Assembly: GCA_035352955.1 (NCBI GenBank)
Contig: DAOPYQ010000003.1
Coordinates: 140,901 to 204,900 of the forward strand
Origin: Candidatus Omnitrophota bacterium
GTDB lineage: Bacteria > Omnitrophota > Omnitrophia > Omnitrophales > Aquincolibacteriaceae
Reading direction: 5' to 3'
DNA: 64,000 nucleotides
Shown: one piece after another, positions 3,533 through 64,000 of the stretch
Position numbering within the stretch: the first letter of the stretch is position 1
Layout: every line of letters begins with the position of its first letter
Translations under genes and position numbers: made by a program
The notes under the pieces: model-generated
Databases searched by the model: none
What the model saw: only the letters and a program-made list of their open reading frames with translations
Told to the model about the DNA's origin: nothing

Positions 3533-3659
3533 TGACGAGCCTAGGGCAAAATTCAGAAATAAAAGATCAAGGTTAAGAACCCGCTTCGCGGTTTATTGAA
3601 AAGCGGCGCAGCCGTTACCGAGATTTTGCTCTTTGCCTTTAGAATTTTGAGCGGTTTTC

Positions 3660-5114
3660 TTAGGCAAGTTCGCCGCGGAAGGTTTCGTGGTGAAGTCCGG
3701 TGATGCGCATTTTGAGAAATTGCCCAGAAAGATCCTTCCGCGAAACAAAGACCACACGCCGGTCCTGATCGGTCCGGCCTACGAGCTCTTCCGGATTTTC
3801 CAAATTGCGCTTTTCCACAAAAACAGAGACCGTCTTTCCGACCAACTCCCGGCTCTTCTCCCCCACGATCCCGCGCTGAAGCGTCAAAAGCTCATGATTC
3901 CGTTGCGACTTTACCTCGAACGGCACATCATCCGGGAGCCTGGAAGCCGGGGTCCCGGGGCGCACGGAATACTTGTAGATGAACGCCCCGTCGAAACGGA
4001 TCTCCTCCAAGGCACGCCGGGTGGCTTGATGATCCTCCTCCGTCTCACCGGAGAACCCGACAATGATATCGGTCGTGATCGAAATATCCGGCACCCATTC
4101 CCTCAACCGGTCGATCTTCGCTTTATACTCGGCGTAGGTATGATAACGTTTCATGAGTTTCAACATTTTATCCGAACCGGACTGAAGCGGCAGATGGAAT
4201 CTCCGGCCGATCTTGGGATTGCGCGCAACCACCCGGAACAACTCCTCATTCGCGTCCGTGGGATGGGAGGTGGTGAATGAAATACGTTCCAGCTTCTCGA
4301 TCGCACACAATCTCTCCAAAAGTTCAGCGAACCTCACCTCCCGCGCAGCGTTCAGCGCGCAACGGTCAACGGCTGGATCACTCGTTGTGCGTTGCGCGTT
4401 GCCCGTCAAACCACCGTTATACGAATTTACATTCTGTCCAAGCAGCGTGATCCATTTTACGCCGTCCGCGACAAGACGCCGGGCTTCCCGCTCAACCTCC
4501 GCGGCCGGCATGGAAACTTCGGCGCCGCGGGTCATCGGAACGACACAGAACGTGCATTCCTTGTTGCACCCCGTCATGATCGGAAGCCACGCGTGAAAAC
4601 CACTGTCGCGCTTCGTGAACTCGCTGTATTCGATGGAAATTCCGTCCTGTTTGATGCGGAGGACATGCTTTCGCGTTTCATAAACCTGACGGATCATTTC
4701 CGGAAGCTCTTTAATATGACGGGTCCCGACCATCAGATCCAGATACGGAAATCTTTTGAAGAGTTTTTCCCGGTGCTCCTCGACCATGCAACCCATAAGC
4801 CCGATGACCAGGGACGGATTTTCTTTCTTTTCCTTGCCAAGCATCCCGAGACGGCCCCACACCCGCTCTTCCGCATGCTCCCGCACCGAGCAGGTATTCA
4901 TTAAAATGATATCGGGCCGGAGAGATTCATCGGGCACCTCAACGCCCGCATGTGTCGACTGAGGCGACAGATGCCGCGCCAGATTCCTCCAAACCTCATT
5001 ATCCTCGGCCTCCGTAATGACCTGAAAGCCCGCTTTCTCCAAAATGCCGGCCGCCACCTGGCTGTCGTAGGCGTTCATCTGGCATCCGAAGGTTTTTAAT
5101 ACTACTTTTTTCAT
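3660..5114 (-). CDS. miaB: tRNA (N6-isopentenyladenosine37) methylthiotransferase, MiaB-like radical SAM enzyme
   Basis: The N-terminal MTTase motif is KTFGCQMNAYDSQ. The radical-SAM site is CNKECTFCVVP. A C-terminal TRAM domain is present. A ~20-aa insertion (LTGNAQRTTSDPAVDRCALNAAREV) sits between the radical-SAM core and the TSHP motif. Confidence 0.85.
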   Translation of the reverse strand: MKKVVLKTFGCQMNAYDSQVAAGILEKAGFQVITEAEDNEVWRNLARHLSPQSTHAGVEVPDESLRPDIILMNTCSVREHAEERVWGRLGMLGKEKKENPSLVIGLMGCMVEEHREKLFKRFPYLDLMVGTRHIKELPEMIRQVYETRKHVLRIKQDGISIEYSEFTKRDSGFHAWLPIMTGCNKECTFCVVPMTRGAEVSMPAAEVEREARRLVADGVKWITLLGQNVNSYNGGLTGNAQRTTSDPAVDRCALNAAREVRFAELLERLCAIEKLERISFTTSHPTDANEELFRVVARNPKIGRRFHLPLQSGSDKMLKLMKRYHTYAEYKAKIDRLREWVPDISITTDIIVGFSGETEEDHQATRRALEEIRFDGAFIYKYSVRPGTPASRLPDDVPFEVKSQRNHELLTLQRGIVGEKSRELVGKTVSVFVEKRNLENPEELVGRTDQDRRVVFVSRKDLSGQFLKMRITGLHHETFRGELA

Positions 5115-5340
5115 ATCATGACAGGGCTTTCGCAGCCCATGCGCTCCATTGTCTTAAACTGGACGGGTAATAAGAACCGCCTCATTGATACTCGCTGCAA
5201 AGGGAAGAAAGGCAAGGAACCGTCCCGATTTCTTTATGGTAAAAATCACTCCCTGAAATAGAATCCATCCTCCCACCATTCCTTAGGAGGATCGGAAACA
5301 CGGCAGAAAAACTCCGAGGCTCAGCGAACAGAGGCGGAAC

Positions 5341-21248: not shown

Positions 21249-24200
21249 TTACGCGGCCGTCCGAACCGATTGTTCGGCCACCATACGAAGATAAGTCTGG
21301 ACCGCAACGCTGGAAACCACAAAGTTCCGGCCCTTCGCCTGGATCAGCGCCTTCTGCTCAAAGAGGTTCAAGCGACGCAAGAGCTCATCGCAGATGTCGC
21401 TCGGGGTCATTGCCAAAGCACCGGATTTCGTGCCCGCCCGGATATCCGCCAGGTGGATCGCGGCCACCACCATCAACCGGTTCATGTAATCCCGTACAAA
21501 AAGATCACCGACTGAGGCCACATTCCCCACCACAGGATCAAACACCGGCGCCAACGTAACGACCGTCGCTTCCGTTCCGGTAACATACGGCACGTTGGAC
21601 TGATTCCGCGAAATGAAGTTCCGGTTCAGCGGTGCCTGACGGACCGTGACCCCTCTGGCCTGGAGCGCGGCCCGGACCTTGCCGTTCAACGCACCGCTAA
21701 CTGCCAGCTCATTGACACGGCTGGTTCTTTCGCTCGGGATCTTAAGGAATTGTTCCGCGAAACCCGCCAAGGACGGATCGAATGCCACAGTAAGATTCCC
21801 CTCGCCCTGCCCCAGCGTCGCATCCAGAGCTTGCATCCGTTCCGGAACGATCGTTGCGATCATCGCATCCGTCGTCTCCGCCGCCATCGCTGCCGGCATG
21901 AGGACAAGGTTCCTGACGCGGATCACAAACGGCATCACATCGCCGTAGGCCCCGAGATCGCGTTCCGCCGCGCGGCTGAACCCATCGCCCTGAATATAGG
22001 CGGCAGGGTCCGATTGGCTCATGACTTCCACCGAGAACTTTCCGCTCTTCGCGCTGATCTCTCCGCCGATCTTCCTGAGCTCCGCCCGGCCTTTCTTTTC
22101 CAACCCCTCCCGCACCGCCTCTGCCCCTTGATCTGCTGCGATCTTTGCGATCCGATCCGCATCCACGCTCACCAACTCGTCGATCATTCGGGATCCTGAC
22201 CGCTCCCTCACTTCGGTGTGAACATTTTCCATATCGAATATTTCGTAGTGCCGGCTACGTTTGTCAAATATCAGGATTTGGCGTATTCCCCCTACAGGGA
22301 TCGCCTCCTCCGTCGTAATTTCTCCGCTGGAAAATTCGTCTTTGATTTGGACTTTCGCTTTTTCGACCACAACAATCGCACAAACAAAGTCTTCGGAGAG
22401 AAGTTTTTTCTTAAAACCACCGCCCGCCGGCATAATGCTGTAATCAATCGCATCTTGTGGTTTTGCTGTCAAGCTGATCGAAAGCCCTGTTGTCTCATCG
22501 GGAGACATACCCTTGTTAACAGTTTCGGCCAAAGACGAATAGCGCAGCCGCATGCCTCGGTAAATATATTGAGCCCCCCGGTTGATCCTCGACGCTTCTT
22601 TTCTCCTGAAATCAAGCGGATCCAACGCATCCAGCTCGGGTATCGCACTTAAATCCAATTCGTCTTTAAAAACAACCGCTCCTTGTTCCGCCCGCGCCTC
22701 GGCTCGGACTTCCTTCCGCATTTCCGCGCGATGCGCTGCAGGAGCAAGAGAGCTCGCAACTTCCTTGAACCGTATCTCCAAAATATCCTGGCCCGATTTT
22801 TTTATGGAAACAGACGCGCCCGGCGTCTCGATGCGGGACCCGTTCTTGCGGACAAAAACAACCGTATCCCCGTCTTGTCGAACGTCATAGGCTTCACGCA
22901 GGACAAGTTCGAGCGCCCAGAGTGCGTTTTTGTAGGCAGGGCTCTTTCGGACCGCGGAAGGCTCGGGCTCAATGGAAATTACGCCCGTCACTCCCAGCAA
23001 CTTCGCAGCCTTCAAGGAAAGCGCCAGCAGCTTGACCACCGTCGGATTCACAGAATCTTGCCGGGGAACATCAAAAATCACATCGGGATGCGACTGTCCG
23101 TTCGAAAAATATCGCAGGAACGCCGCCCGATCAATGCCGGCCGGGATCCATGCCAGATCCGGAAGGACCGCGATAAGAAATTTAACGTTGGTCCGCGGGA
23201 AGGTCGTCAGGATAAGGGACGCGGCATCTTGGGCCACGGCATCCCCGTCCTCAACGGCTTTCAGGGTCTTGCGGAACGGCTCGGAATAATACCCGGGAGT
23301 TCTTTGATCAAACTTCTGGTCCCAGGACGCCAGCACCCTTTCAAGCCGGTCAAAAACTCCGGATGCGCTCCTCGCGTCCAGCGCTTGCCCGGTCGCATCA
23401 AAGGTCTTATTGTCCTCGGCAAGCCGTACAACTTCATCGAGAACGGTGTGCTGGAACTCGTTTTTGCGCAACTGGAGCTGTCCGCGATCTTCAGCGAACC
23501 CTGCCTGATCTGTAATACTGATGACGTAAATCAGATTCAGCAGGTTGCGGAATCTCTCGATATCGATCTGCTGCCCGTCTGCGGAAAGGAATGCGCGGAT
23601 TTCCGGGGCATTCAGAAAATCTTTCATGGAAACATCTGACAGTTCGCCGAACGCCAGCTCCGAAAAAAACGTATGATAGCGAATGGCCATCCGGATCATC
23701 TCGGTATCTGCGGGGCTGATCAGTCCGTCCGCCACAAGGCCATCAAGCAGGCCGAGTTCCCGGATCATATCAGAACCCACTCTGTCGTGGATCCTCATAT
23801 TCCGGAATTTACCGATATCATGCAGGAGGTCCGCCCAATACAGCATCCGGTAAGCCTTATCCGGATCACCGGGCGCAAGCGAAAGGACGCGCGCCTGAAG
23901 ATCCCGTACAAGCGATTCGCCTTGGTTTGTGCCCAAAAGACCGGAAAGATAATACCACTGTTCAAGCCGCCTCAGTCCGTCGGTAGCCGCCGGCTTTGCC
24001 ATCGAGCGAACCTGTAACGCTGCCGCAAGAACGTTCGTGCAATGACCAGCAACTCCATCCAGTTCAGTTTCCGCCGCCGCATCGATCGTGGAGCGGTCAA
24101 GCGCCAGGATCGTCCTCAAAAACACCCGGTAATCCTGATAGATCCGGTCATCCAACCGCCGGCGGATCTCAGCGGCCCTAAGTCCGCGGATCTGCGCCAG

Positions 24201-27200
24201 TTCCCGGAAAAACCCCATCGTTTCCGGCCCCGTCAACCTTTCAAACGTCGGTCTGATCGTACTTCCCGACTCCCCCCGCGCTTCGGAGCGGCTTTCGGCG
24301 CGCGGGGCGGAATTCTTTTCATACGCTTGCGCAAACGCATTAAAATCGCCGCCAAACAGGATCGTCCCGAAACATTTCGTACAATCTCCCGCATTGTGCA
24401 ATGTAAAATCACCTTCCGTGCCGGTCAAAAATGCCCGCGGCTCAAAGAACCCGAATTTCGTGTATTTAGGAACTCCTTCGTCCGTCAGTGTTTCCTTTAG
24501 GCTGACCTCCCCCGAATAAATTTGCACAAACACATCATGCATCAATAACTGCCACGGGGTTCCATCCGCGTTCCTGCGGAATCCCATCCTCTTGCCGATC
24601 GTCGTGATCGCTTTGACCCGGACCCCTAGATTTTTTTCCACTTTACCGGAGATCACTTTCAACATGTTGGGATCATCTTCCCCCGCGATCGAAGCCGACG
24701 GAAGGCTCCACACGCCCCCGTTATCCGCCAGCTTGGGATTCCTGAATGCAAACAGCGCTTCTCCTTTCTCGTTCAGAAGGATCATGGACACGGCATACGC
24801 CGTTTTTAACTTTTTCCGTGTAGGATCCGTATTCGCATCATAGACGATCGTCGAAGGATCCACATGCCAATCGGCCGGAATCTCCATGTGGACCTCCGCC
24901 GCAGGCGTTTGCGTGTTTAGAACTGAGGGAAAAACCTGCGCCCCTCTCCCAAAAAACTGGTCCCTGGATTCAATCATTTTCGCAAACTGCTCAATAGACT
25001 CGTCGGGATACCCCAACAGCCGCCCCAGCATTCGGTGATACTCAACAGATCCTATGGCAACAGGTCTACCGTCCGGACCGGTGGCTTTTTCCTCAAGCAG
25101 TAAAACGATCTGCCGCGCAACTTCAGGCGTTCCAGCAACAATCAACGACCACGCATTGCGCAACGGCTCTTGATTGTTCCCTTTATCTTTCCATTGCATC
25201 GTAAGGGTCTCCACCGACAAACCTCTTTCTTTTGCAATTTGGATCAAAGCCTTTCCTTCTTCATGTCTTACCACATCTTCGCCAGACACCAGCGCAGCGG
25301 GTTTTGAACCGGCAACAACAGCCGCCACATCGTCAACCCCTCTTGACATAACAAGCTCGCTCGGCATGATTTGCTCCTGAGTTGCCGCCCACCCGCGCCA
25401 TTTTTCGATCCGCTGCTCGGCAGCTTTCCGCGCAACAGGATCGATCAAGACAGGAGCCATATCCGCCCGCACCGCCGCCGGGAAATTTAAAGTGCCGGGT
25501 TTGATGTTCGAAATTGAAGACAGTTCCGGAGATCCGGCATTCACCTTTAAACTTTGGACTTCGGACGTTGAACTTGGCTCTTCCCGCTTCTCATCGCGGC
25601 GGGCGGGTTGGGACACGCCTTGGGCGACTTCTGCGGCGTATGCCTCGCTTTCGGCTTTGTAATATTCGCTCGCGGGATCGTTATACGGCGGAACGGGCGC
25701 CTTAAAGAACTGCGCGAAAAGCTGATAAATCGACCACTGATCCGCGAATTTATGCGAGAACAGCGTGACCGTCGTCCGGATCCGGGAGGAATAGGTTTTG
25801 TCGTTACCGAACGCTTTGCCGAGTGCGTCCCCGCGCCGTCTGAACAATTCTTTTTCATCCGGGCTGAGGATGTCCTCCAGCGTCTTCACTTCCCGGTGAG
25901 GAAGAACCAACGCCGAAAAACCTTCCGGCAGATCCTTTTTCACGGTCTCCCGGATACTCTTCATGGCAGCGGAAGTCATAAACGGTATCGCGATGATCGC
26001 CTTCGCAGTCGGATAATGCCTCGCGATCTCCCGCAGTGTCGCGACGACCTGCTGAGCACTGTAACAGGCGTCATCAACGATCACAAACGTCCGGACCCCG
26101 GAAGACTCACGCTCCCGCATCAGATTTTCATAATAAGGTTTGAAAGGTTCCACATAAGCCGTAAAAACCGGCGCTTTCAGACCCTCCCGGATATTCGACC
26201 AGACCCAGCGACGCGATGTGTGGGGCCGTCCGAAAAGCACCGCGTACGGACCGGCCGCCTCCAGGGCAGAGGCAAGCGCTTCTTTCGTTTTCATCAACTC
26301 CGTAAAAAATTTCGCTTCGGTAATAATCTCCCCCTCCGCAACAACTTTCCGGCCCAGCGCGAGGATGGCCCGTCGATCCGGATCTTTGGCCTTTTTCAAC
26401 TGCGCGTCCCATGTCGCGAAAAACTCTTCCTCGTCTCTGATCCGCTCCGGCACTTCTGGCGTACGTTTCTCGGCACGTTCGGCGGAGCTTTCCTTCGCCG
26501 CCGATTTTACCGATGACGGTTTCGCGTCCGCCAATTTGACCAGCGGAAGGGACAACTTCGCCGTACCGTTATTAAAACGACCCATCGGAAGGGGTAATGC
26601 CGATTGACCTTTCCATCCCAGCACCGGCTTCTGCAAACGTCCCGTAAGCCAGGGACCAAGTTCCTCAAGAGGGTCCACACTGATCACGATCTCGGGATTC
26701 CCATCGATTACCAAAGACCCCGCGTTCGTCCAACCGCCTTCACCGCGCCTGCCGATGCCAGACACGACCAGTTGCTGCTGCGCCGCCGGTGAGAGCGAGT
26801 TCCAGACACCCCCCACCTGGTCCTTCGGGATGTAGCTCTTCATGCGAGCCTTCATACTCCCAAAATCCACGCCGGATTCCTTGGACAGGAATTGACGGAC
26901 CGCGCTCATGACAAATTCGCGGGTCTCCTTTGCGGCTTTGGCGGAATTCAAGCCGTTCGTCGACGGCACCCGGATATTCCAGACCCTCCCGTCGGGCATG
27001 AACAATATCAGGGAGACCAATGAATAGCGCACGTTGGAAGCCTTCTTCCAGTGCATTTCGGCGAACGGCAGGGCCAGAGAATTGACCAGCTGCTGGATCC
27101 ATTGATCGAGATTATTCGCGGACGGGTCGAGAACCGCCTGCACATCCACGGCGATCGAGGCCGAAACATTCCTGGGACGCGCGGGAGGAAGCGTTTTGAC

Positions 27201-30200
27201 GACCTTGTTGCCGTCCACCTTGGCGCTAGCCGTCTGAGCGATCTGATCCACGGGCACCCCTCCGGCCAAGCTGACCACGGCTAATTCCGCGGTCTCACGA
27301 CTATTTCCGGAGGGCGCCGCCCGGTGCAAATTTGTTTCCGAGTGAAGCTTGAAACCTCCCTTCGGCGCCACGATTTGGATCTTTTTCTGTAAAAATTTTG
27401 AACCGATCAGATCCGTCAACGTCCGAAGCTCAATACCTCTCGAAACTTCAACGCTATACGCCCCCAAGCTATTCGTCACGATATTGCGCATGCGGGTATA
27501 AAATTTTTCAAGCGTCAGGGAATTCTCACCGCCGGTGGCCCGCGCAAGCCTGATCAGATTCTCAAAATAACGTTCACGCCCCGAAGCGCCGCGTTCCCGA
27601 TGTGTCAGCCACTCCATCACATCAATCACAAACGGACTGATCGTCAAAAATCTCACAAGGTGTTTAAAAAATTGCGCCCGGGTAGGAGGCTCGTAGGGAA
27701 CCGTCCCCTTCGCGGCAAGAGCAAGCAGGTCGGCAATTGCGCGTTCTTTCGGCGACAATTTCCCCGAAGCGATCAACTCCTCGGGGTCGGAGCCCGCGGG
27801 AGGATGATACCAGCCATTATCTCTCAGGATCAGCCGCAGCGTCCGTCCCCGGAGTGTCTCGGTGCTTGCCCCGAACCATGCCCGATCGCTCGACCGCAGC
27901 CACGCCTTCCACGGGATGAGAACCCAACGGTAGAGCAACCCGCCCAAAAGAGCGAAGACGAGGTACACTTTAAAAAACTGATACAATCCCGGCAACGGAT
28001 TGAACCGTTGTATCTCGCTTTTCCATTCGTCAAAAATCGATTTGAGGGTCCCTCCAAGCGACCGGGCAGGCGTTTGACGTCCCGGAACGGGCGGCAGGGA
28101 TTGAACCCGGGGGTCAAGGTCCTTCACTCCCTGGGGAATATCACGGACCTTTCCGTCTCGCAAGAAAACCCACCCGTGAGGATACACCCCTTCTTTGAAC
28201 TGGCCTTCTGAAATCAGATTCCCCGCCTGAAGAACTCCTGTTTCAAGATCGGTGAGCCAGAATAAAGCAATGCTCAGAAATCCGAATCCATCGCAATCTG
28301 TGGCCCCGCTCATGAACACCCTCGACACGAACGGAAGTTCTGTGTTCAATCCATCAACCCGGTTGTCCTTGCTATACTTGAGCGTCGCGAGAAGATTGAG
28401 CATCTCCCTTTCCCTCAAAAATCCCGCAGGAAGCTTCTGCGCCAAAACAACCTTCTGCCGTATCTCCGCAGGCAAAAGCCTCATCACTTCTTCTTTCGAA
28501 TAAGCGCGGTTTTCGGCAAAATTGAACATCACCGCTTGCCCGGGCGACGGAAGGTCACCGTTCTTTTGATCCCCCAGAACAATCGTGATCGTTTTGCCGA
28601 CAGGCCCGTCAAAAGAAAATTCCCAAATTCCGCGCGGGTCGTACCGCAGCTTGGCAAGTTCCCCGCTTTCCGATCGGGCTTCCAACACGATCGTTCCGGG
28701 AGCGAGACCTGTCACAAGGCTCCTGGCCTCCGCCTGATCCGGGAACAGATCCATCTTGGCAATAGCCCTTCTTCCCGTAGGAGAGGTGTATTGCCGGAAG
28801 TCCGTAGGCCCCGGGCCATATTCTCCGGTAGCGGGATCCAGATAACGGAACCCCATCAAAGGAAGATAATCAAATCCGAAATGGTGCTTCAGATCCTGAC
28901 GATGCCGGTACAAGGCAAGCGTCCTACCCTCGGAATTCTCGTCCCCTCCGCCGGTTTCAACGCGTTCCGACCGGCCGTCGCTGTTAAATCCCGCGTTCCG
29001 CGGACCACCACCCTCCGTCCCGGCCGTACCCCGGCCCATCGCCTTTGGCCGCATCTTGTTAATTTTTTTAAGCGTTTCCGCCGCATTCTTTTCGATCTTT
29101 TGAGCCATTTCGATCTGGTCCCGCCGCATTGCCTGGTACCAGTTCATCCCCGACCACCCCGCACGGAGAGTAAAACCGACGCTCAGGATCATCAGAATCC
29201 GGCCGAACCCTCTGAGAACCATCGCCGCCAGACGCCGGCGGTCGCGCTCGCCCATAACCTTTTTCCCGAGATAGCCGTACCGCTCCGCCATCAGCCGCAT
29301 AGCGTCTCCATTATTCTCGAGACCAGCCTGGTCCACGCCAAGAAACTCTAAACTCCGGCCCGAAATGAACGCTTCAAGAGCATCCTGCAAGACGATCTCC
29401 GAATGCTCCTCCAGACCCGTGAAAGCGCTCCAGTAAAGATCCGAAAAGATCTTCCTGGCGGCTTCAAAATTCGTACTCTGGGGGTCACGAAGCCATTCGC
29501 GGAGTGTTCTCACATAAAAGCGCGACCTAACCCCGGGATAATGCGGTTCGGGAAATAACCCCAGGTCCATGCCGGCACGAAATAGCATCAGGGAATCGCT
29601 CAGCGTTTGTTTCCGAAGCGTGGTTTCCCGGTCAAGGATCACCGTATCGATCACATTCTTGTCCTTTTCCGAAACGTTGTTCCGCAGATCTTTGAATCGC
29701 GTCCACGCGGCTTCGGCCCGCGCCGAGATCGTCTCGAGAGAAAGCGCCTTGACCTTCCGGACAAAATCCTTATTGCCGAAGATCTTGAGACTCCGCGAAG
29801 GAATATCGAAACCGAGCCTCCTGTCGAGCAGCAGATAAAGAAGCCCGGTCGAGGACTGATGATAGTCATTGGCCTGCGTAAGGTATTGCTCAAAGATCTG
29901 TAACGCGAGAGGATCGGCCGCGGCGTATTTTTGGCAAGTTTTGATCAGAAGAACGATCTGTTCATGGACCCTCTCCACTTCTCCCAGGGCGGTCACAAGA
30001 TCGTTCAGGTTCCCGTTCGCTTTCGAGACAGCATTCGCCATCGCTTGATCGTGTTTTTCCGAAAGATCCGCCACTGCGGCGAACAAGGACTCCAGCCTGT
30101 CGGCCGGTCGACCCTTCGCGCCCCGTTTCTCCGCGCGAAAAGCACCTGCCGCTGTCTCTGGGGTCATTATCAAAGGCCGCTCCTTACGGAACCCTCTCAA

Positions 30201-33200
30201 GGACAGGACAAGCCCATTTTTATAGTCGGGTTTTCCATCGGCCAGATTCGAGGCCTTAAATCCGAGCCCTTCGTAAAAGCTCGGCGGGTTCTGCTCCGTG
30301 ATATGCCCGTCCAGCTGATGCGCTTTGACGGTAACCTTGGCCGTTACATCCCTGGGAACAAGCGAGCGCCAGAGCTCGATCCGGGTCCGATAGATCGCCT
30401 CCGCCAAACCATCGCCTCTGCCACTCCCGTAATCCGGATGGTCCGTGTTAGCAAATATTTTATACTGCATCTCGAGATCGCTCAGATCTCCCTTATTGAC
30501 ACGCGTCACGCCGTAGCCAACGTAGATCCCGTCGACAAAATAAAATTCCGTGACGTCCGCGCCATCCCGAATCGATTTTCCGTCCACCGTCATGCCGTTC
30601 ACAGCCAACACCTGGGTCAGATCGCGCCCGGACAAGATCCCCGGAACACTGCGGAAAAACAGGACCGGTTCTCTGCCCGGTTCGTTCGCTGAAAGGCTCC
30701 AGTACGGCAGCGGCAGGGTCCGGCCCTCCCCCGACAAGTGATAAACCTGAAGACGCTGTAGAAAATCGAAAGCGGGTTTACCTTCGAGAGTTTTTAAATC
30801 GGAAGAAGTCGATAGGGCTTCAACAACCGGCCCGAAACGCAACGGTGCGTTGTCCGCCGTCGTCTTCTGGAAAGATTCATCATGCGCAAAAAACTCGCGG
30901 AACGTCAGATACATTCCGATGAGCGACCAGCGTTTTGAGACTGGCGCACCCAGGATCTCGGCCACGGGCTTCGCATCCCCGGCAAGAGGCTGCCCCGCAA
31001 TCTTCCCGGCCCAAACCTCGAAAGGTTCATGCGTTACTTCGAACGTCCGTTTCTCCGCGCGGAAGGAATCCGCGAAAACAGCCCGGGGCAATGGCATAGG
31101 GATCCCGGCCACCATTTCTCGGACCGGCCGGATATCGCTCCCCGCCTTCTTTAGCGTGGCCGGAATAAAGTAAAGCTTGCCCCGCCATTCTCCGTTTTCG
31201 AAAACAACGGTTTCAACCGGAAGACCGTTCTGCAGATAGTCGTAAAAATACCGGGCAAAGACAAGATTGAGAACGCCCGGGATCATCAGCGGACGGCTCC
31301 CATCGATCCGGGGATCAGAAGCGCCCACCTCAATCGCGGCGCCAAGCTCGCCGGTCAGCGGATCTTTTTGCAGAACCGCTCTTAGGGAAAACAAAGCCTC
31401 GATGTCCCGGAATTCTTTTTGCCAGGATTCCTTATCAGGAAATTCCTCGTTCCGGAAGATCTCAAGTTGAGCTGCAAGTTCCGTCCGGTTAAGTGCGTTC
31501 AGCCTGGCTAATACGGAAACCGGAGGAAACAACACCCGTTCGGGCTTCCCCTGGGACGGGATCATAGAATAAACAACTCCGCCGGAAGTGACGGAATGTT
31601 TCAGGTAAAGCGCTCCGTCCTGGTAGCAGAAATTCCTCACCCCATCCACGGAAAAAAACTTCGGGTTAGACGATTGCTCCGCCGAGATCGAACTTTCTTC
31701 GGCCTGCAAACGTTCGATGTAAAGGCGGCCCGCGGGAACAGAGACTTCTCCATTTTCAAACCCCAGCTCGCCCGCCGATGGGAATTTAAAAACCGTCTGG
31801 ATCGCCTCGATCGCCTGCGCCCGTTCGGAGATCTCGGCACCCTCCATCGGCATCCCGGTCCTGATCTCCTTACGAGAATTGGACGCCGAAGCCGAACCCG
31901 GCCGCCCTTCCGCCGCGTTCTGCGAAAGATCCGGGGCCAACTTGCTCCAGATCTCCGCGACCTTACGGAAGAACATGGCGTACTCCTGAACCAGCGTGGG
32001 ATCAAGAACGGCTGAGACATGCCCCCCCGGCGCGGGATGCATGAGCCCCATGTGATGCATGAGATGTTCCGGAGTTTCATCATAATCATTTTCCTGACTC
32101 AGAAAATCAATGTATGCGACCAATCTTTGCGCCGGCTCCGCAATTCCACTGAATCCCCCGTCTTCAAATACCTTGGCACGCTCAAACCGGGCCACTTCAT
32201 CCCCCAGCCCCTCGAAAGTCATTTTGTCGAGTTTCTGGATATAAGCCGTTTGCTCATTGTCCGGCCAACCCCGCGGGTCCTGATAATACTGCTTCCTCTC
32301 CGGCGACAACATCCTGACCATTCTCTGCAATCGCCTCCACGCGTCATCAAAAGTCCCCTGCCGGCTGTCCCGCATAAGCCCGAACGCCGCCCCCTCCCTC
32401 GCCCGCAACTCGTAACGTCCTCCCGTTGCGATCAAAGCGCTCGAAAAAGCACTGGCCCTCGCCTCGGCAGCCATGCGCTGAAGCTCAAACTCCTGAGGAA
32501 TGCCAAAAGAACTTTGAGGAATTTGCTTAAGCTTAAGCAACTGTTTGCGGTGGACAATGTCTTTGTCCAATATCCTGGCGAGCATGAAACGGGCGGGAAC
32601 GAGTTCATACTGATCCAAGTGCGCGGTCAATTTCGCGCACTTTTGTTCGGCCGAAAGCAGCTTCATCGAAGCGCCGGACCAATCCCCATCCTCTGCGGCT
32701 TTTCGGGCGTTCCGCATGTCAATCGCAGCCGACTCGACATTTTTGGAAAAAGTATCCGCCTGACGAAACGCATTGCGGTCGGCCTCGGTAATCTTCTCAT
32801 TCCGGGAAAGCTTTTCCAGAACATTGTAAAGGGCGTCCGAGTAGAGAAAGGTCTCGAGCGTACGCGGGTATTCAAAGATCCCCGGCGCCCACGTCTGGTG
32901 ATAAGTTCCGGCCTGCAGATCGATCCGGTCGGCGGGAGGCAACGAAAGGCCATCCCTCAAGTACCGGTGATAAAAGTAGAGGATCACCATGCGGTCCTGA
33001 AAATCGGAATCCTGAAGAAGGACCCACATCGTTTCCCGGTTTTTCGTATCATTGGCCCGGGTCTTCACAACCGAGTTGAAAAAGGTCGCCTGTTTTTTCG
33101 TCAGACCGTCATACAGAACAGAACGAACGTTGGGATCCAGCTTCGCCTTACCCGCCGCAAATAATACCGCGTCGATCGCGGAGCGGGCCTCCAGCATTTC

Positions 33201-36200
33201 CGCGCTTGCCGCCGTAACGGAGCTCGCCTTCTTCGCACCGCCCTGATTGGGGATCAACCCCCTCCCCCCTTCAGCGGTCGCCGTCCCCAAACGCGTTTGA
33301 CCGAAATTCCTGCGCTCGACGTCCCTCGCGACATCTTTCCTGATTTGCGCCAGCGCCTTTTCTTCCTCCGGAGTCGGCTCCCTCTCCTTCAATATCTGGG
33401 TCGCCATCCAAAGCGTCTCAACCTCTTTTTTTTGTCCAGGCCATAACCTGAATCCGTACTTTCCGTAGCTTCGATCGATTTTACCGAAATAGCCCACGAC
33501 CCGCGGCTTCACCTTAAGAGCTACAAGTTCGGGATGATCCACCGCCACGGGCTTGAAACCCTTTTTCTGCACAGTAATGACCTGCGACCCCTTTGCGGCG
33601 CCCTCACTCGAAACGCCCGCTGCTGGCGTCTCCGAAACTATAACCTCACGGCTCTCGGAAGATTTCTTCGCATTTTTTTTAGCGTTGTATTCTGCAAACG
33701 TTTTGCGGGTCTCATTCAAAAAATTGCCGGTCCATAATTTTTGGGGCATGCCAATTTCCTGCTGGAGCATTTTGACAAGGCCTTTTCGGACCGTCGGATT
33801 CGTCGTGAGCTCGATCTTTGTTTCGTCCAGCATGTCGGGGTCAATGATCTCCGCAACAACAAGCGCGTTGGCCAACTCATCGATCCTCAATTCGGTCATC
33901 TCCGCCACGGTGTTTTTACCGGCCGGCGCCTTTACAGAAGTTTCGGCGGCTACAACCGCTTTGGCCGTTGCGACCTGCCGGGTTTGCGAAGTCACGGCGT
34001 GATTTTCCCTGAGAACTTTCTGCAACTTGTCGAGGAACGAGGCCACCGAAACCACTGCCGCCGCATTTCCGGAAAACTCCACCGACCGATCAACGGCCCC
34101 CTGGGACGCCCCCTCCGCCCCAACAACCGCCATCGCCACCAGTCCCGCCGCCAGAATCGCCGGATTCAGGAACATCTTGGCGCGGATTCCGTCTGAGATC
34201 TCAACCGCCGGTTCCGCACGTCGTTCGTGGCGAAGCACCGAAGAAAGAGAACTGACCGTTTTTTTATACTGGTTCCGGTTCATGCCAAAATACGCCGGGT
34301 CACGCTTCGTCTTTTCCAGTTGCGCGGCCGGCAACGTCTTGATCTCGGAACCGGCGTGCTGCTCCGATCGCACGGCCGCCTGTTTAAGAACTCGGGCGGT
34401 ATCCACGACGAGCGGATTTACGACCGGTTTTCCGGCCGCGATGCTCTCAAGAGCGGCGGTCATCTCTTCGCGAGTGGCAAAAACATCCTTCGCTTCCGAG
34501 GGCACGATGCCCGGCAATTCCGCAGAAATGATCGCGGTACCGGGACTCAGCACGGAAGAGGCCGCCGGCTCCGCAAGCATCGAACGTTTGGCAGCTCCCG
34601 CGTTATCCAGAAGCGTCGACACGCGCTCCGCGGTAAGTTGTTTCTTGTTCATCAATGCTTTCAGCCCCTCCATGAACCGGCCTAATTCGGATTCAAAATG
34701 CTGCCAGATCGCCTCGAGGCTTTTATCGCGGAAACCGGCGAGTTCCTTGTCGAGGATCCGGAGGATCTCTTCTTTGCTCTTCGGCGCACCTTTCCCGAAT
34801 TTCTCCGCAAAAATGCCGGAGAGCGCGTCAAGGTATTGCGTGTAATGACCGGCCTCGGCGATGCGGCCCCGTCGCGCAAGGTCACGGATCACTTCATCGC
34901 GCCAGCCTTTGATATTCCGGAGAAAATCCGCTTGGTCGAATTCCCCGACCAGCGCACGCGTGGAATGGCGAATGAACGCATCGTAATACGTCGTTTTGAG
35001 GAACTCTTTGTAGGAGACGTCGTTTTTCATGATCTTGTCGTAGTTCCTCTGTCCGGAAAGCTCCGCGATCCGCGGGCTCACGACCACATAATCGACCCCT
35101 TTCTCACGGAACAGCTGCTTGAGGCCTTCGGTGTGAAAACCTCCGGCCACCACGATGGCAGTACGCTGTTCGGAGTTTGGCGTCCGGGAAGACTCCCCGC
35201 GGAGCAGCGCCATCAGGTTTTCATAAAAAGCGCGATCGCGTTCGAGGGCCAACTGATAAAAACCGATCGCCTGCCTGAGGTTTTCGCGAAAGGCCTTGTC
35301 GGCAAGGAGTTCCAGATAAGCGTCCGGCTCCTTCTGGTATCGGGCCAGCTGCTCATGCGTGAGTTCAAGGTTGGTGAGATCCTTCAAAAGGAACAGCTTG
35401 TGATATTTTTCCGCAAGGGCCTTTTCTTCCGGCTTTATGATGAGCCCCCCTTCGATCGCAAGAAGACCGGCCTGAAGATCCGCAAAAAGTTTGCTGCCCT
35501 TCATCGCGGAAAGGGTCTCGGTGTGACCGAGAAGCGCCTGCATCTGGGGCGTCAGTTTGGGCCGGAATCCCTTGGCGCCGCCGAATTCGATCATGTACTG
35601 GAGAAATTTTCCCCCGTCCATCTGGCCGGTGAGGAACTGCTGGAAACGGTTGTAAAAGTTCATCTCATCCTTGACGCCCGAGCCGCGCACAAACTTCGTC
35701 TTGAACTCAACGGCCATCGCCTTGATCATCGGATCAAGCTCTTCTTGTTTCCCCGAGGCAGCATAGCCCACCGAATCAAGAAGCTTCAGGAACTCCTGAT
35801 GCCCGCTTTGGCTGAGTTGTTTTCTGAAGTTCGCAAGATAGATCAGGAACTCGCCAAAGGAGATCTTTTCCGAACGGAAACTTTCGCACCGCTCGTGGAA
35901 TTCGTTCAGCGTGGCGGAGTAGACGGTCAGGCGTTCAGGATCGAGCTTTTTGCGGAAACCCTCCAAGGTCGCAAGCAACGCCGCTTTCGGCTCCTGGGCG
36001 CGAAGCCAGGCGCGATAATTTTCTTCGTAGAGGGACCAATCCTCCATCCCCCGGTAATCCCGCTCGTTCGCGTCAAAGATCGCGGCCATCTGCGGGCCCG
36101 TAAGTTCACCGCGCTCGAGATAGGCCGAAAGGACACGCTGTTTCACGGCCGCGTTCGGGAACATGCGAAGAAGCGTCGGATCAAGTTTCTCTTTAGCGCC

Positions 36201-36611
36201 CTCGATTGCGACGAGTTTGATCCCGCAAGTCTTGTCAAAATGCCCGATCAGTTTTCGGATGCTTTCCTGCGCGGCAACGACCGCATGGGCATCCTGGATC
36301 AAGACCACAAATTCCTTGGAAGATGGGACGCGGAGAACAGTAGACGCAGAACCGTCAGCGCCCGCCTTCAAGCCCCGTCCTTCCGCCTGTTTCGGAAGCG
36401 ATGCTTCTTCGATTGTCCCGAGTTCGACCGGTACCGTAACCGAAGAAGACAGAACCCGCGGAGCCGTCCGTGCGGAAACTTCCGGAGCGGCCGCCTCAAC
36501 CGGCAGAGACCACGTCACACTCGTGACGATAAAAACAAACACCGTCCCTAGCGCCGTAGCCCGTAATCCAAAATCCGGTCCTCGATTTTTCCGCATACTT
36601 TTTTTATCCAT
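21249..36611 (-). CDS. giant (5,120 aa) signal-anchored multi-domain protein: TraB/TIKI-like N-domain; transglutaminase-like, PRTase-like, Nudix-like and HD segments; internal TM modules
   Basis: A single uninterrupted 15.4 kb ORF. N-terminal TM is ALGTVFVFIVTSVTWSL. Motif coordinates: LIQDAHAV/VVAGGFHTEG (about 36300/35150); transglutaminase-like TDCDGFGFLSIALF...YPHGWVFL...D (about 28290-28170); VIVDDACYS (about 26080); GGVWSLPSASIAGEDDP (about 24700); LLHDIGKF...RIHDRV (about 23810). See findings. Confidence 0.85.
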   Translation of the reverse strand: MDKKSMRKNRGPDFGLRATALGTVFVFIVTSVTWSLPVEAAAPEVSARTAPRVLSSSVTVPVELGTIEEASLPKQAEGRGLKAGADGSASTVLRVPSSKEFVVLIQDAHAVVAAQESIRKLIGHFDKTCGIKLVAIEGAKEKLDPTLLRMFPNAAVKQRVLSAYLERGELTGPQMAAIFDANERDYRGMEDWSLYEENYRAWLRAQEPKAALLATLEGFRKKLDPERLTVYSATLNEFHERCESFRSEKISFGEFLIYLANFRKQLSQSGHQEFLKLLDSVGYAASGKQEELDPMIKAMAVEFKTKFVRGSGVKDEMNFYNRFQQFLTGQMDGGKFLQYMIEFGGAKGFRPKLTPQMQALLGHTETLSAMKGSKLFADLQAGLLAIEGGLIIKPEEKALAEKYHKLFLLKDLTNLELTHEQLARYQKEPDAYLELLADKAFRENLRQAIGFYQLALERDRAFYENLMALLRGESSRTPNSEQRTAIVVAGGFHTEGLKQLFREKGVDYVVVSPRIAELSGQRNYDKIMKNDVSYKEFLKTTYYDAFIRHSTRALVGEFDQADFLRNIKGWRDEVIRDLARRGRIAEAGHYTQYLDALSGIFAEKFGKGAPKSKEEILRILDKELAGFRDKSLEAIWQHFESELGRFMEGLKALMNKKQLTAERVSTLLDNAGAAKRSMLAEPAASSVLSPGTAIISAELPGIVPSEAKDVFATREEMTAALESIAAGKPVVNPLVVDTARVLKQAAVRSEQHAGSEIKTLPAAQLEKTKRDPAYFGMNRNQYKKTVSSLSSVLRHERRAEPAVEISDGIRAKMFLNPAILAAGLVAMAVVGAEGASQGAVDRSVEFSGNAAAVVSVASFLDKLQKVLRENHAVTSQTRQVATAKAVVAAETSVKAPAGKNTVAEMTELRIDELANALVVAEIIDPDMLDETKIELTTNPTVRKGLVKMLQQEIGMPQKLWTGNFLNETRKTFAEYNAKKNAKKSSESREVIVSETPAAGVSSEGAAKGSQVITVQKKGFKPVAVDHPELVALKVKPRVVGYFGKIDRSYGKYGFRLWPGQKKEVETLWMATQILKEREPTPEEEKALAQIRKDVARDVERRNFGQTRLGTATAEGGRGLIPNQGGAKKASSVTAASAEMLEARSAIDAVLFAAGKAKLDPNVRSVLYDGLTKKQATFFNSVVKTRANDTKNRETMWVLLQDSDFQDRMVILYFYHRYLRDGLSLPPADRIDLQAGTYHQTWAPGIFEYPRTLETFLYSDALYNVLEKLSRNEKITEADRNAFRQADTFSKNVESAAIDMRNARKAAEDGDWSGASMKLLSAEQKCAKLTAHLDQYELVPARFMLARILDKDIVHRKQLLKLKQIPQSSFGIPQEFELQRMAAEARASAFSSALIATGGRYELRAREGAAFGLMRDSRQGTFDDAWRRLQRMVRMLSPERKQYYQDPRGWPDNEQTAYIQKLDKMTFEGLGDEVARFERAKVFEDGGFSGIAEPAQRLVAYIDFLSQENDYDETPEHLMHHMGLMHPAPGGHVSAVLDPTLVQEYAMFFRKVAEIWSKLAPDLSQNAAEGRPGSASASNSRKEIRTGMPMEGAEISERAQAIEAIQTVFKFPSAGELGFENGEVSVPAGRLYIERLQAEESSISAEQSSNPKFFSVDGVRNFCYQDGALYLKHSVTSGGVVYSMIPSQGKPERVLFPPVSVLARLNALNRTELAAQLEIFRNEEFPDKESWQKEFRDIEALFSLRAVLQKDPLTGELGAAIEVGASDPRIDGSRPLMIPGVLNLVFARYFYDYLQNGLPVETVVFENGEWRGKLYFIPATLKKAGSDIRPVREMVAGIPMPLPRAVFADSFRAEKRTFEVTHEPFEVWAGKIAGQPLAGDAKPVAEILGAPVSKRWSLIGMYLTFREFFAHDESFQKTTADNAPLRFGPVVEALSTSSDLKTLEGKPAFDFLQRLQVYHLSGEGRTLPLPYWSLSANEPGREPVLFFRSVPGILSGRDLTQVLAVNGMTVDGKSIRDGADVTEFYFVDGIYVGYGVTRVNKGDLSDLEMQYKIFANTDHPDYGSGRGDGLAEAIYRTRIELWRSLVPRDVTAKVTVKAHQLDGHITEQNPPSFYEGLGFKASNLADGKPDYKNGLVLSLRGFRKERPLIMTPETAAGAFRAEKRGAKGRPADRLESLFAAVADLSEKHDQAMANAVSKANGNLNDLVTALGEVERVHEQIVLLIKTCQKYAAADPLALQIFEQYLTQANDYHQSSTGLLYLLLDRRLGFDIPSRSLKIFGNKDFVRKVKALSLETISARAEAAWTRFKDLRNNVSEKDKNVIDTVILDRETTLRKQTLSDSLMLFRAGMDLGLFPEPHYPGVRSRFYVRTLREWLRDPQSTNFEAARKIFSDLYWSAFTGLEEHSEIVLQDALEAFISGRSLEFLGVDQAGLENNGDAMRLMAERYGYLGKKVMGERDRRRLAAMVLRGFGRILMILSVGFTLRAGWSGMNWYQAMRRDQIEMAQKIEKNAAETLKKINKMRPKAMGRGTAGTEGGGPRNAGFNSDGRSERVETGGGDENSEGRTLALYRHRQDLKHHFGFDYLPLMGFRYLDPATGEYGPGPTDFRQYTSPTGRRAIAKMDLFPDQAEARSLVTGLAPGTIVLEARSESGELAKLRYDPRGIWEFSFDGPVGKTITIVLGDQKNGDLPSPGQAVMFNFAENRAYSKEEVMRLLPAEIRQKVVLAQKLPAGFLREREMLNLLATLKYSKDNRVDGLNTELPFVSRVFMSGATDCDGFGFLSIALFWLTDLETGVLQAGNLISEGQFKEGVYPHGWVFLRDGKVRDIPQGVKDLDPRVQSLPPVPGRQTPARSLGGTLKSIFDEWKSEIQRFNPLPGLYQFFKVYLVFALLGGLLYRWVLIPWKAWLRSSDRAWFGASTETLRGRTLRLILRDNGWYHPPAGSDPEELIASGKLSPKERAIADLLALAAKGTVPYEPPTRAQFFKHLVRFLTISPFVIDVMEWLTHRERGASGRERYFENLIRLARATGGENSLTLEKFYTRMRNIVTNSLGAYSVEVSRGIELRTLTDLIGSKFLQKKIQIVAPKGGFKLHSETNLHRAAPSGNSRETAELAVVSLAGGVPVDQIAQTASAKVDGNKVVKTLPPARPRNVSASIAVDVQAVLDPSANNLDQWIQQLVNSLALPFAEMHWKKASNVRYSLVSLILFMPDGRVWNIRVPSTNGLNSAKAAKETREFVMSAVRQFLSKESGVDFGSMKARMKSYIPKDQVGGVWNSLSPAAQQQLVVSGIGRRGEGGWTNAGSLVIDGNPEIVISVDPLEELGPWLTGRLQKPVLGWKGQSALPLPMGRFNNGTAKLSLPLVKLADAKPSSVKSAAKESSAERAEKRTPEVPERIRDEEEFFATWDAQLKKAKDPDRRAILALGRKVVAEGEIITEAKFFTELMKTKEALASALEAAGPYAVLFGRPHTSRRWVWSNIREGLKAPVFTAYVEPFKPYYENLMRERESSGVRTFVIVDDACYSAQQVVATLREIARHYPTAKAIIAIPFMTSAAMKSIRETVKKDLPEGFSALVLPHREVKTLEDILSPDEKELFRRRGDALGKAFGNDKTYSSRIRTTVTLFSHKFADQWSIYQLFAQFFKAPVPPYNDPASEYYKAESEAYAAEVAQGVSQPARRDEKREEPSSTSEVQSLKVNAGSPELSSISNIKPGTLNFPAAVRADMAPVLIDPVARKAAEQRIEKWRGWAATQEQIMPSELVMSRGVDDVAAVVAGSKPAALVSGEDVVRHEEGKALIQIAKERGLSVETLTMQWKDKGNNQEPLRNAWSLIVAGTPEVARQIVLLLEEKATGPDGRPVAIGSVEYHRMLGRLLGYPDESIEQFAKMIESRDQFFGRGAQVFPSVLNTQTPAAEVHMEIPADWHVDPSTIVYDANTDPTRKKLKTAYAVSMILLNEKGEALFAFRNPKLADNGGVWSLPSASIAGEDDPNMLKVISGKVEKNLGVRVKAITTIGKRMGFRRNADGTPWQLLMHDVFVQIYSGEVSLKETLTDEGVPKYTKFGFFEPRAFLTGTEGDFTLHNAGDCTKCFGTILFGGDFNAFAQAYEKNSAPRAESRSEARGESGSTIRPTFERLTGPETMGFFRELAQIRGLRAAEIRRRLDDRIYQDYRVFLRTILALDRSTIDAAAETELDGVAGHCTNVLAAALQVRSMAKPAATDGLRRLEQWYYLSGLLGTNQGESLVRDLQARVLSLAPGDPDKAYRMLYWADLLHDIGKFRNMRIHDRVGSDMIRELGLLDGLVADGLISPADTEMIRMAIRYHTFFSELAFGELSDVSMKDFLNAPEIRAFLSADGQQIDIERFRNLLNLIYVISITDQAGFAEDRGQLQLRKNEFQHTVLDEVVRLAEDNKTFDATGQALDARSASGVFDRLERVLASWDQKFDQRTPGYYSEPFRKTLKAVEDGDAVAQDAASLILTTFPRTNVKFLIAVLPDLAWIPAGIDRAAFLRYFSNGQSHPDVIFDVPRQDSVNPTVVKLLALSLKAAKLLGVTGVISIEPEPSAVRKSPAYKNALWALELVLREAYDVRQDGDTVVFVRKNGSRIETPGASVSIKKSGQDILEIRFKEVASSLAPAAHRAEMRKEVRAEARAEQGAVVFKDELDLSAIPELDALDPLDFRRKEASRINRGAQYIYRGMRLRYSSLAETVNKGMSPDETTGLSISLTAKPQDAIDYSIMPAGGGFKKKLLSEDFVCAIVVVEKAKVQIKDEFSSGEITTEEAIPVGGIRQILIFDKRSRHYEIFDMENVHTEVRERSGSRMIDELVSVDADRIAKIAADQGAEAVREGLEKKGRAELRKIGGEISAKSGKFSVEVMSQSDPAAYIQGDGFSRAAERDLGAYGDVMPFVIRVRNLVLMPAAMAAETTDAMIATIVPERMQALDATLGQGEGNLTVAFDPSLAGFAEQFLKIPSERTSRVNELAVSGALNGKVRAALQARGVTVRQAPLNRNFISRNQSNVPYVTGTEATVVTLAPVFDPVVGNVASVGDLFVRDYMNRLMVVAAIHLADIRAGTKSGALAMTPSDICDELLRRLNLFEQKALIQAKGRNFVVSSVAVQTYLRMVAEQSVRTAA

Positions 36612-63696: not shown

Positions 63697-63718
63697 AGCC
63701 TTGGATTCCTTTTTTAAT

Positions 63719-63735
63719 TTAGATTTTAAATCTAA
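63719..63735. promoter_or_regulatory. perfect palindrome TTAGATTT-T-AAATCTAA 23-41 nt upstream of giant gene 2 start
   Basis: Two 8-bp perfect inverted arms with a 1-nt spacer, in the AT-rich leader. Candidate operator or promoter element. Confidence 0.3.
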
Positions 63736-64000
63736 CAAGAATCTGAAAAAGGTTAACACGCACTGATGGTTTTGAACAGAGGTTGACGCAAAAAAATCTT
63801 TATAAATCGTTTAGTGGTAAAGAGAAACCGCTTCCCTTGAACTTCCCGGTTTTTAAAATGAAGAAATGGGACATGAAAACCCGATTTATAGCATCTTCTA
63901 ACAATTAAAAATTCACGACGCTACAATGAAGTCCGTTATGCCGACTTGCACTTGCCCCTGTCGGGCAAGTACTAACGACATACGGACCAATGAAGTCCGT

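Follow-up and report, generated by a model that had tools for sequence, protein, structure and literature searches.

Giant proteins of Omnitrophota have been described as carrying a signal peptide and transmembrane (TM) helices, combining several enzymes and containing NUDIX or HEAT domains as well as large "dark" stretches without recognisable domains (10.1101/2023.11.21.568195; 10.64898/2026.06.07.730766; available text of both preprints). According to the same text, the published surveys analysed proteins of at least 10 or at least 30 thousand amino acids (kaa). It is asked in the available part of the 2023 survey whether such a protein persists as one chain or is cleaved, cleavage being suspected and the cut points being unknown, which blocked further analysis (West-Roberts et al., 2023, 10.1101/2023.11.21.568195). 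Here a smaller protein of this kind is described, named giant protein 1, which is encoded on the minus strand by an uninterrupted open reading frame (ORF) of 5,120 codons (nt 21249–36611, a frame of approximately 15.4 kb). It lies in a 64,000-nt stretch of contig DAOPYQ010000003.1 of an uncultivated Candidatus Omnitrophota bacterium, referred to below as the window. Giant protein 1 was found to be a mosaic of independently occurring modules, held between a head and a tail that are conserved in its family, and a short motif, R-[S/A]-E-x-R, marks the module borders.

Giant protein 1 belongs with the Omnitrophota giant multi-domain proteins by its origin, its length of 5,120 aa, its four helices (as called by hydropathy) and its at least four different domain families. 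As far as the available text of the two preprints allows comparison, it shares with the published giants the phylum, a very long ORF, an N-terminal signal or anchor, scattered helices, unrelated enzyme domains and dark stretches. It differs in being smaller (5.1 kaa, below the limit of at least 10 kaa) and in lacking SecA-DEAD, C39, S8 and dockerin domains, none of which was found in giant protein 1 by Pfam scans. A keyword search of that text returned no mention of a plan of head, punctuated cargo and tail, or of R-S/A-E-x-R. Relative to it, the head-tail plan with its punctuation motif is what is new here; the assignments of HD, PRTase-CE and Nudix-fold domains are in themselves ordinary. 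Giant genes of the Omnitrophota are a recognised puzzle, for which the locus provides a manageable family of intermediate size, in which head and tail are constant and the cargo is exchangeable.

A second point of comparison is given by the polyvalent proteins (Iyer et al., 2017, PMC5512222), which also unite several unrelated enzyme domains, including a phosphoribosyltransferase (PRTase) with a catalytic DD pair and extra motifs, and whose domains have solo versions. In contrast to these, giant protein 1 lies in a chromosomal housekeeping context, has TM helices as well as a head and a tail specific to its family, and shows neither a MuF or portal fusion nor a PHROG match. In MARTX toxins and viral polyproteins, conserved ends enclose a variable string of enzyme modules which are delimited by short linker sites. 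The layout of giant protein 1 is similar, by analogy only, and it lacks a MARTX-type cysteine protease domain.

A Head-Tail Family of Omnitrophota Giants

The head of giant protein 1 (Table 1) is shared with a second giant of the window, giant protein 2 (53209–63759, minus strand; 3,516 aa), and the similarity of the two is limited to the first ~550 aa (25% identity, E 1e-32). The head of giant protein 2 lies at 61960–63501 (minus strand), and its body is unrelated to that of giant protein 1, having HEAT_2 repeats (E 1.6e-23) and several strong hydrophobic helices. A search with a two-sequence alignment (giant protein 1 and its relative P0002) identified 56 loci carrying the head, 55 of which come from Omnitrophota/Omnitrophica or from metagenome-assembled genomes labelled "uncultured bacterium", with one being labelled Elusimicrobia. 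Up to four or more copies were found per genome. Thirty aligned heads share the invariant residues Q106, H109, E137-G138, Y195, F451-Y452, R458 and G490-G491-x-H493. Head-bearing ORFs are long: of the 27 examined, 26 have lengths from 2,400 to over 4,000 aa, and L055, truncated by the end of its locus, stops at 662 aa. Most family members carry an N-terminal hydrophobic segment.

The tail was found at the extreme C-terminus of P0002 (53% identity), P0008, L022, L023 and L057, with homology starting at residues 4813–4848 of the query, and no Pfam family was matched by it. Between head and tail the members are unrelated, save for occasional shared cassettes (the PRTase-CE and HD modules described below). 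Giant protein 1 is one member of an Omnitrophota-specific, multi-copy family of proteins of 2.4–6.7 kaa, with a presumably exported head of ~650 aa, swappable cargo and often the tail.

With regard to the nature of the head, no TraB, ChaN or erythromycin esterase match was obtained for the window copy in Pfam. TraB_PrgY_gumN, ChaN and erythromycin esterase are families of one Tiki superfamily, and H109, E137, R458 and GGFH493 of the head presumably fit the pattern of that superfamily. The sub-threshold matches of six other heads to these families (see below) are consistent with a Tiki-superfamily hydrolase, an identity that they do not prove.

The R-[S/A]-E-x-R Punctuation Motif

Giant protein 1 has eight R-[S/A]-E-x-R sites where 0.92 would be expected, a count reached in none of 1000 shuffles. 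Shuffling showed the motif to be likewise enriched in giant protein 2, which has six sites (aa 666, 1556, 1566, 1772, 2287, and 2603), and in P0002, P0003, P0004, P0021 and P0008. A total of 233 sites was counted in the 116,020 aa of 35 head-family proteins (2.0 per 1000 aa), and the enrichment in head-bearing giants is more than 20-fold. No site was present in 19 housekeeping proteins of the window (9,496 aa), and giants without the head have two sites in ~23,000 aa. The ORFs flanking family genes have 0.245 sites per 1000 aa, with 12 of these 18 sites falling in two other giant ORFs.

The consensus of the motif is R-S/A-E-[VLM]-R, embedded in linkers rich in Ala, Ser, Gly and Glu. In giant protein 1, P0002, P0003 and P0008 it is located at the borders of homology blocks, and this also applies family-wide, as 90 of the 233 sites are found no more than 30 aa from either end of a block, compared with 54.5 ± 6.2 expected (none of 2000 permutations reached 90). 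The motif, a statistically strong signal, marks module borders. A recombination repeat at the DNA level was considered as its origin and rejected, because the sites share only their own codons; the DNA around them is not conserved, which places the signal at the level of the protein. The motif may be the site at which the giant chain is cut, and it supplies concrete candidate cut sites at module borders. The boundaries that it sets also allow dark giants to be divided sensibly for structure prediction.

The 5′ flanks of two family genes (L004:1–9600 and L048:1–9600) hold further giant ORFs of more than 3,000 aa, which run off the locus and have seven and five punctuation motifs, respectively. 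Family genes may be clustered.

Modules of the C-Terminal Part

With aa 3400–4599 as the query, 1.84 billion representatives were searched exhaustively by HMMER. This retrieved 93 proteins, whose matches split into four non-overlapping groups corresponding to modules A, B, C and D (Table 1). Stand-alone proteins of domain size are present in each of the four groups, and no outside protein among the 93 combines two of them. In order, the last 1,700 residues consist of the PRTase-CE module (A), module B, the Nudix-fold module (C), the HD module with its extension (D), an unassigned segment of ~200 aa and the tail. An ADP-ribosyltransferase-like R-S-E pattern (YIYRG ... SISLT ... TTEEAIP) picked out by eye at aa ~4676–4790 (nt 22242–22586, minus strand) was rejected as no Pfam, PDB or homologue support was obtained for it.

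Every peptide string quoted in a first-pass annotation of the window, which had been made from the sequence without database searches, was recovered in the translation within about 20 nt of the position given there, and three of its four enzyme-like domains (HD, PRTase-like and Nudix-like) were confirmed.

The HD phosphohydrolase among these is above the cut-off of PF01966, with 28.5 bits on a 351-aa segment (gathering cut-off 22) and 24.8 bits when the 2,721-aa half of the protein is scanned. The strings that had drawn attention to it lie at aa 4186–4315 (nt 24056–23667). The metal ligands H4190, H4264-D4265, H4275, H4313 and D4368 are intact and, in the family alignment, are conserved in ~18 relatives; owing to this conservation the HD site looks competent. 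The module is shared with the giants P0003 and P0004 at 33–34% identity. Among solved structures, the closest in sequence is the Aquifex A-adding enzyme, through its HD domain (3wfo, E 1e-3), and a weak NCBIfam match to GlnD was also obtained. Module D thus has the H..HDIGK..H..H..D ligand set of HDIGK-type HD phosphohydrolases such as class II CCA/A-adding enzymes and GlnD. However, unlike in these enzymes, no nucleotidyltransferase domain is attached, and the ~250-aa extension is unique to the module D family.

The PRTase-like string RTFVIVDDACYSAQ (aa 3507–3520, nt 26093–26052) had been described as having the acidic pair and lacking TGxT, which is correct. More exactly, the segment is best read as a PRTase-CE module of ~280 aa (PF24390). 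This family is matched by 23 of 26 aligned relatives of module A (best E 3.8e-11), and the window copy retains each of the nine columns that are invariant in alignment A1 (W, S, W, DD, Q, P, H, and D). The type I PRTase profile PF00156 reached 17.2 bits in the window copy, under its cut-off of 26.3. In the phosphoribosyl pyrophosphate motif FVIVDD is present and the [ST]-G-x-T loop is absent, with ACYSAQQ in the window copy corresponding to A.YSGEQ in the family. Approximately 60 homologues were found, both stand-alone and repeated within giants, and the family profile retrieved no meaningful solved relative from the PDB. The PRTases of invasive elements make up a separate group, with a catalytic DD and unique features, and occur both solo and in multidomain proteins (PMC5512222). 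Judging by its name, PF24390 would be this group. Two giants without the head, P0012 (4,003 aa) and P0052 (3,535 aa), have 10 and five tandem PRTase-CE modules, respectively, and almost no punctuation motifs.

Module C had been regarded as a Nudix-like block (aa 3965–3997, nt 24719–24621) with a dead catalytic box, a description that holds for its whole subfamily. As a single sequence it gave only a weak Nudix match in the PDB (1sjy, E 0.04), and PF00293 did not match the window copy at E ≤ 10. All 18 PDB matches of the family profile at E ≤ 1 were Nudix-fold proteins, the best being MutT 3hhj (E 3.5e-4), and the stand-alone homologue P0053 (~32–33% identical over ~160 aa) passes PF00293 with 29.2 bits (cut-off 21.1). 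Aligned to 3hhj, the R-E-x-E-E positions are occupied by K-V-E-K-N (aa 3990–3994). The box is degenerate in all eight relatives of alignment A3, which have GKRMG.R, LLMH, PKYT and GDCTK in common. Compared with MutT-like Nudix hydrolases, the sequence similarity is at the level of the fold, over the beta-strand/loop/helix region, whereas GX5EX7REUXEEXGU is absent from the entire subfamily and other motifs are conserved instead. Module C is a Nudix fold that is probably not a canonical pyrophosphohydrolase. One stand-alone relative, P0010 (L064:660–1957), is encoded directly 5′ of a Macro-domain gene on one short contig. This adjacency hints at an ADP-ribose-related ligand for the Nudix-like module.

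Module B had been overlooked in the first reading. It has 16 stand-alone homologues and matches no Pfam family. Its AlphaFold model, built from the family alignment, is of good quality (pLDDT 82.8, pTM 0.78), and the sole notable Foldseek match is the effector NleE (4r29; E 3e-3, prob 1.00, TM-score 0.45–0.47, ~170 aligned columns, 14% identity). A viral structure library yielded no match to the model, and the sequence profile retrieved neither NleE nor any other meaningful solved relative from the PDB. The S-adenosylmethionine ligands of NleE are R107, E191 and Y212 (PMC4239114), and these could not be mapped onto module B. The modelled relation to the NleE/OspZ cysteine methyltransferase effectors is a weak lead and not an assignment. 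Two uncharacterised domain families with stand-alone relatives, the box-less Nudix fold and the NleE-like-fold domain, can each be studied alone.

Hydrophobic Helices and the Cys-His-Asp Region

Paired TM segments had been placed at residues 2130–2160 and 2560–2590, each followed by Gly/acidic low complexity. Both regions are hydrophilic on the Kyte-Doolittle scale, which instead gave four single, unpaired stretches of helix length elsewhere in the chain (Table 1). Low complexity of the kind described does follow helix 3, but not the other helices. The RDRRR sequence on the N-terminal side of helix 3 suggests that this side is cytoplasmic. Helix parity and the basic flanks (positive-inside rule) would leave aa 39–812 and 2483–2877 outside and aa 834–2460 and 2903–5120 inside. 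Modules on alternating sides of the membrane are therefore plausible, and hydropathy and parity would put the loop with the Cys-His-Asp motif outside and all nucleotide-type modules inside.

This loop contains the remaining enzyme-like domain of the first-pass annotation, a transglutaminase/papain-like core. The motif itself is present in the canonical order and spacing (C2773-x38-H2812-x6/11-D; C2773-x2-F ... H2812-G-W ... D2819/D2824), with the Cys part at aa 2768–2784 (nt 28310–28260) and the His/Asp part at aa 2807–2824 (nt 28193–28140). A regular expression of the form C..F x35 HGW x D, defined post hoc, is met in 0.05% of shuffles of giant protein 1, which has 12 Cys in total. However, no support for the core came from Pfam, the PDB or homologues. 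Segments of 301, 271 and 90 aa matched nothing in Pfam at E ≤ 10, and a PDB sequence search was also empty. GTDB genomes and JGI metagenomes gave no homologue of the region, whether or not the 500 aa downstream were included in the query. A word index of 5.8 billion clusters gave none for the region or its 186-aa core; this index also yielded nothing with the C-terminal half of the chain and missed giant protein 1 itself. The 93 proteins retrieved with aa 3400–4599 contain no counterpart, and neither do the 27 family ORFs. The single-sequence AlphaFold model (pLDDT 33.9) is uninformative on the fold. A real transglutaminase-like core in this region is less likely than not.

These results bear on the architecture suggested earlier for giant protein 1, an uncleaved membrane-threaded scaffold which would hold, in one chain, an active transglutaminase/papain-like domain for cross-linking or proteolysis outside and nucleotide-metabolising domains inside. 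In its favour, the modules of the HD, PRTase and Nudix types are real, and the Cys-His-Asp pattern, rare in shuffles, falls between helices 3 and 4, within a loop predicted to face outward. The lack of matches and the poor model of that region argue against the scaffold, as do the missing TM hairpins and the punctuation motif at module borders, which suggests separable units. On balance, such a scaffold is improbable.

Proposed Mode of Action

The reading that we favour, and to which we give an even chance, is that giant protein 1 is a membrane-anchored, polyprotein-like enzyme array with a nucleotide-acting cassette. The N-terminal anchor, together with the three other helices, would insert the chain into the inner membrane; the head and the loop of aa 2483–2877 with its Cys-His-Asp motif would face outward and the nucleotide-handling cassette would face the cytoplasm. 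The R-S/A-E-x-R sites would serve as processing or hinge points, releasing or at least delimiting enzyme-sized units (PRTase-CE of ~290 aa, module B with the Nudix fold of ~430 aa, and HD of ~520 aa) whose sizes are like those of the stand-alone relatives. The substrates of the cassette would be nucleotides or molecules derived from them, with phosphoribosyl transfer falling to PRTase-CE, ligand binding without hydrolysis to the Nudix-fold domain, and phosphoester cleavage to the HD domain.

Several observations weigh against this array. Approximately 60% of the chain (aa 834–2460 and 2903–3390) has no assignable domain. No conserved operon or fusion joining the four cargo modules was seen in the contexts of their stand-alone homologues, outside giant protein 1, and because nothing links them elsewhere a joint pathway is one that we infer. 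The window copy of PRTase-CE falls short of the PF24390 cut-off of 27 bits, with a score of 23.2 (E 7e-5), and the Gly of the YSG loop of the family is replaced by Ala. When the heads were scanned singly against Pfam, six of the 30 gave sub-threshold matches (E 0.03–0.07), to TraB_PrgY_gumN (3), ChaN (2), and Erythro_esteras (1), and head profiles found no solved relative in the PDB. The topology was derived from hydropathy, and the number and position of helices vary widely among relatives, so the side on which the tail lies would differ by member. Finally, instead of being cut, the motif sites could act as structural linkers or serve for docking.

A more specific version of the array extends it to the whole family. 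In this version, which we consider possible if rather unlikely, head-bearing Omnitrophota giants would be bacterial polyproteins that a dedicated protease cuts at R-[S/A]-E-x-R sites in flexible linkers, the P1 residue being Arg, and whose enzyme-sized products are used separately. A candidate cleavage linker is SAERAEKRTPEV. Candidates for the protease are the Tiki/TraB-like head that the family conserves and, in giant protein 1, the Cys-His-Asp loop. If this were true, the paralogues would be interchangeable "cassette racks" by which sets of enzymes are delivered or co-expressed.

Table 1. Features of giant protein 1 in the window, listed from the N-terminus to the C-terminus.
Feature	Position (nt)	Strand	Residues and remarks
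Giant protein 1 CDS	21249..36611	-	5,120 aa; aa i starts at nt 36611-3(i-1)
N-terminal signal/anchor	36498..36563	-	aa 17-38; hydropathy 1.78; preceded by basic MDKKSMRKNR
Family head	34512..36497	-	aa ~39-700; invariant Q106, H109, E137-G138, G188, Y195, F451-Y452, R458, G490-G491, H493 (alignments A4, A8)
Helix 2	34113..34175	-	aa 813-833; hydropathy 2.01
RAEKR	31047..31061	-	aa 1851-1855
RAEKR	30123..30137	-	aa 2159-2163
Helix 3	29166..29231	-	aa 2461-2482; hydropathy 1.67; RDRRR on N-terminal side
Gly/acidic low-complexity stretch	28926..29054	-	aa ~2520-2562; read from sequence
Transglutaminase/papain-like motif	28140..28310	-	C2773, H2812, D2819 or D2824; motif-level resemblance only
Helix 4	27906..27980	-	aa 2878-2902; hydropathy 1.79; basic C-terminal flank
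RAEKR	26463..26477	-	aa 3379-3383; ~11 aa before PRTase-CE module
PRTase-CE module (A)	25599..26432	-	aa ~3394-3671; DD 3513-3514; YSAQQ replaces TGxT loop; conserved W3401, S3466, W3469, H3620, D3624
RDEKR (looser motif)	25584..25598	-	aa 3672-3676; directly after PRTase-CE module
Module B	24912..25472	-	aa ~3714-3900; ~150-aa domain; PS..DD.AAV.AG.KPAA, YHR..G..LGYP.E.I..F
Nudix-fold module (C)	24312..24908	-	aa ~3902-4100; degenerate box; GKRMG.R 4006, LLMH 4022, PKYT 4048, GDCTK 4075
RAESR + RSEAR (double)	24276..24302	-	aa 4104-4112; between Nudix-like and HD modules
HD module (D)	22731..24275	-	aa ~4113-4627; core aa 4186-4370, nt 23502-24056; then ~250-aa conserved extension
RAEMR + RAEAR	22692..22730	-	aa 4628-4640; end of HD module
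RAELR	22074..22088	-	aa 4842-4846; start of tail
Family tail	21252..22073	-	aa ~4847-5120; ~280 aa

Gene, Database Records and Genomic Context

Giant protein 1 is a real single gene situated among housekeeping genes. The identical protein is present in the public records HNX68553.1 and HPS36883.1 (cluster n = 3, with contigs of up to 448 kb), which come from independent assemblies, and a gene next to it assigns the window to GCA_035403665.1. Its database name, [quoted passage not shown], covers just ~4% of the chain. The surrounding genes are those of the core of an anaerobe, encoding PFOR, ADP-forming acetyl-CoA synthetase, NrdD/NrdG, a transaldolase-phosphoglucose isomerase fusion, ArgRS, MiaA, HflX and NadE, and a cytidylate-kinase-like gene is also found among them. 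No matches were obtained in a PHROGs scan, and matches were insignificant in PADLOC and at noise level in NCBIfam. The locus is not a phage, a plasmid or a defence island.

As a polyvalent effector of predation or host manipulation, giant protein 1 would use its modules against prey or host cells, as polyvalent proteins or MARTX toxins do, and not in the metabolism of the cell that makes it. Its PRTase-CE type is that of the polyvalent proteins of phages and conjugative elements (PMC5512222), module B has a type III secretion effector as its only fold match, and a stand-alone Nudix-like relative adjoins a Macro-domain gene. In addition, cargo turns over fast between paralogues, with some segments being orphans, and a link of Omnitrophota giant proteins to predation has been published (available text of the giant-protein preprints). 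Nevertheless, no secretion or injection machinery lies nearby, the neighbours are of the housekeeping type, the phage and defence scans gave no match of note, helix parity puts the cassette in the cytoplasm and the NleE match is weak (TM-score 0.45). The effector role is therefore judged to be unlikely, if conceivable.

The same neighbours could point to housekeeping salvage or turnover of nucleotides, performed for a small host-dependent cell by a membrane-tethered fusion of a PRTase, a nucleotide-binding Nudix fold and an HD nucleotidase. Such a role would suit the proximity of NrdD, the cytidylate-kinase-like gene, NadE and PFOR, the intact catalytic set of the HD module and the location of the stand-alone PRTase-CE homologue P0009, which also lies among housekeeping genes. 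It is quite improbable, however, as a multi-copy family whose paralogues differ in cargo does not resemble a conserved pathway, the catalytic box of the Nudix module is dead, the PRTase has no canonical phosphoribosyl pyrophosphate loop and the modules are not found together elsewhere.

HD, Nudix and PRTase domains occur in defence systems, and weak PADLOC matches to Cas3 HD and PRTase_III-A (E ~0.03) were obtained. These scores are insignificant and there is no defence island, while an artefactual or decaying ORF is hard to reconcile with an identical protein in three records from independent assemblies, conserved catalytic residues and an uninterrupted frame of 15.4 kb. An anti-phage defence protein or a spurious ORF is accordingly a very improbable explanation of giant protein 1.

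Some minor features of the window were also recorded. No tRNA genes were found in it, and all of its ORFs with a Pfam assignment are on the minus strand. An 858-aa protein is encoded at 6186–8762 (minus strand), the sole recognised part of which is a PPDK_N ATP-binding domain. The transaldolase-phosphoglucose isomerase fusion is a protein of 958 aa (43122–45998, minus strand). The GC skew is below zero in all 2-kb bins of the window (1–64000).

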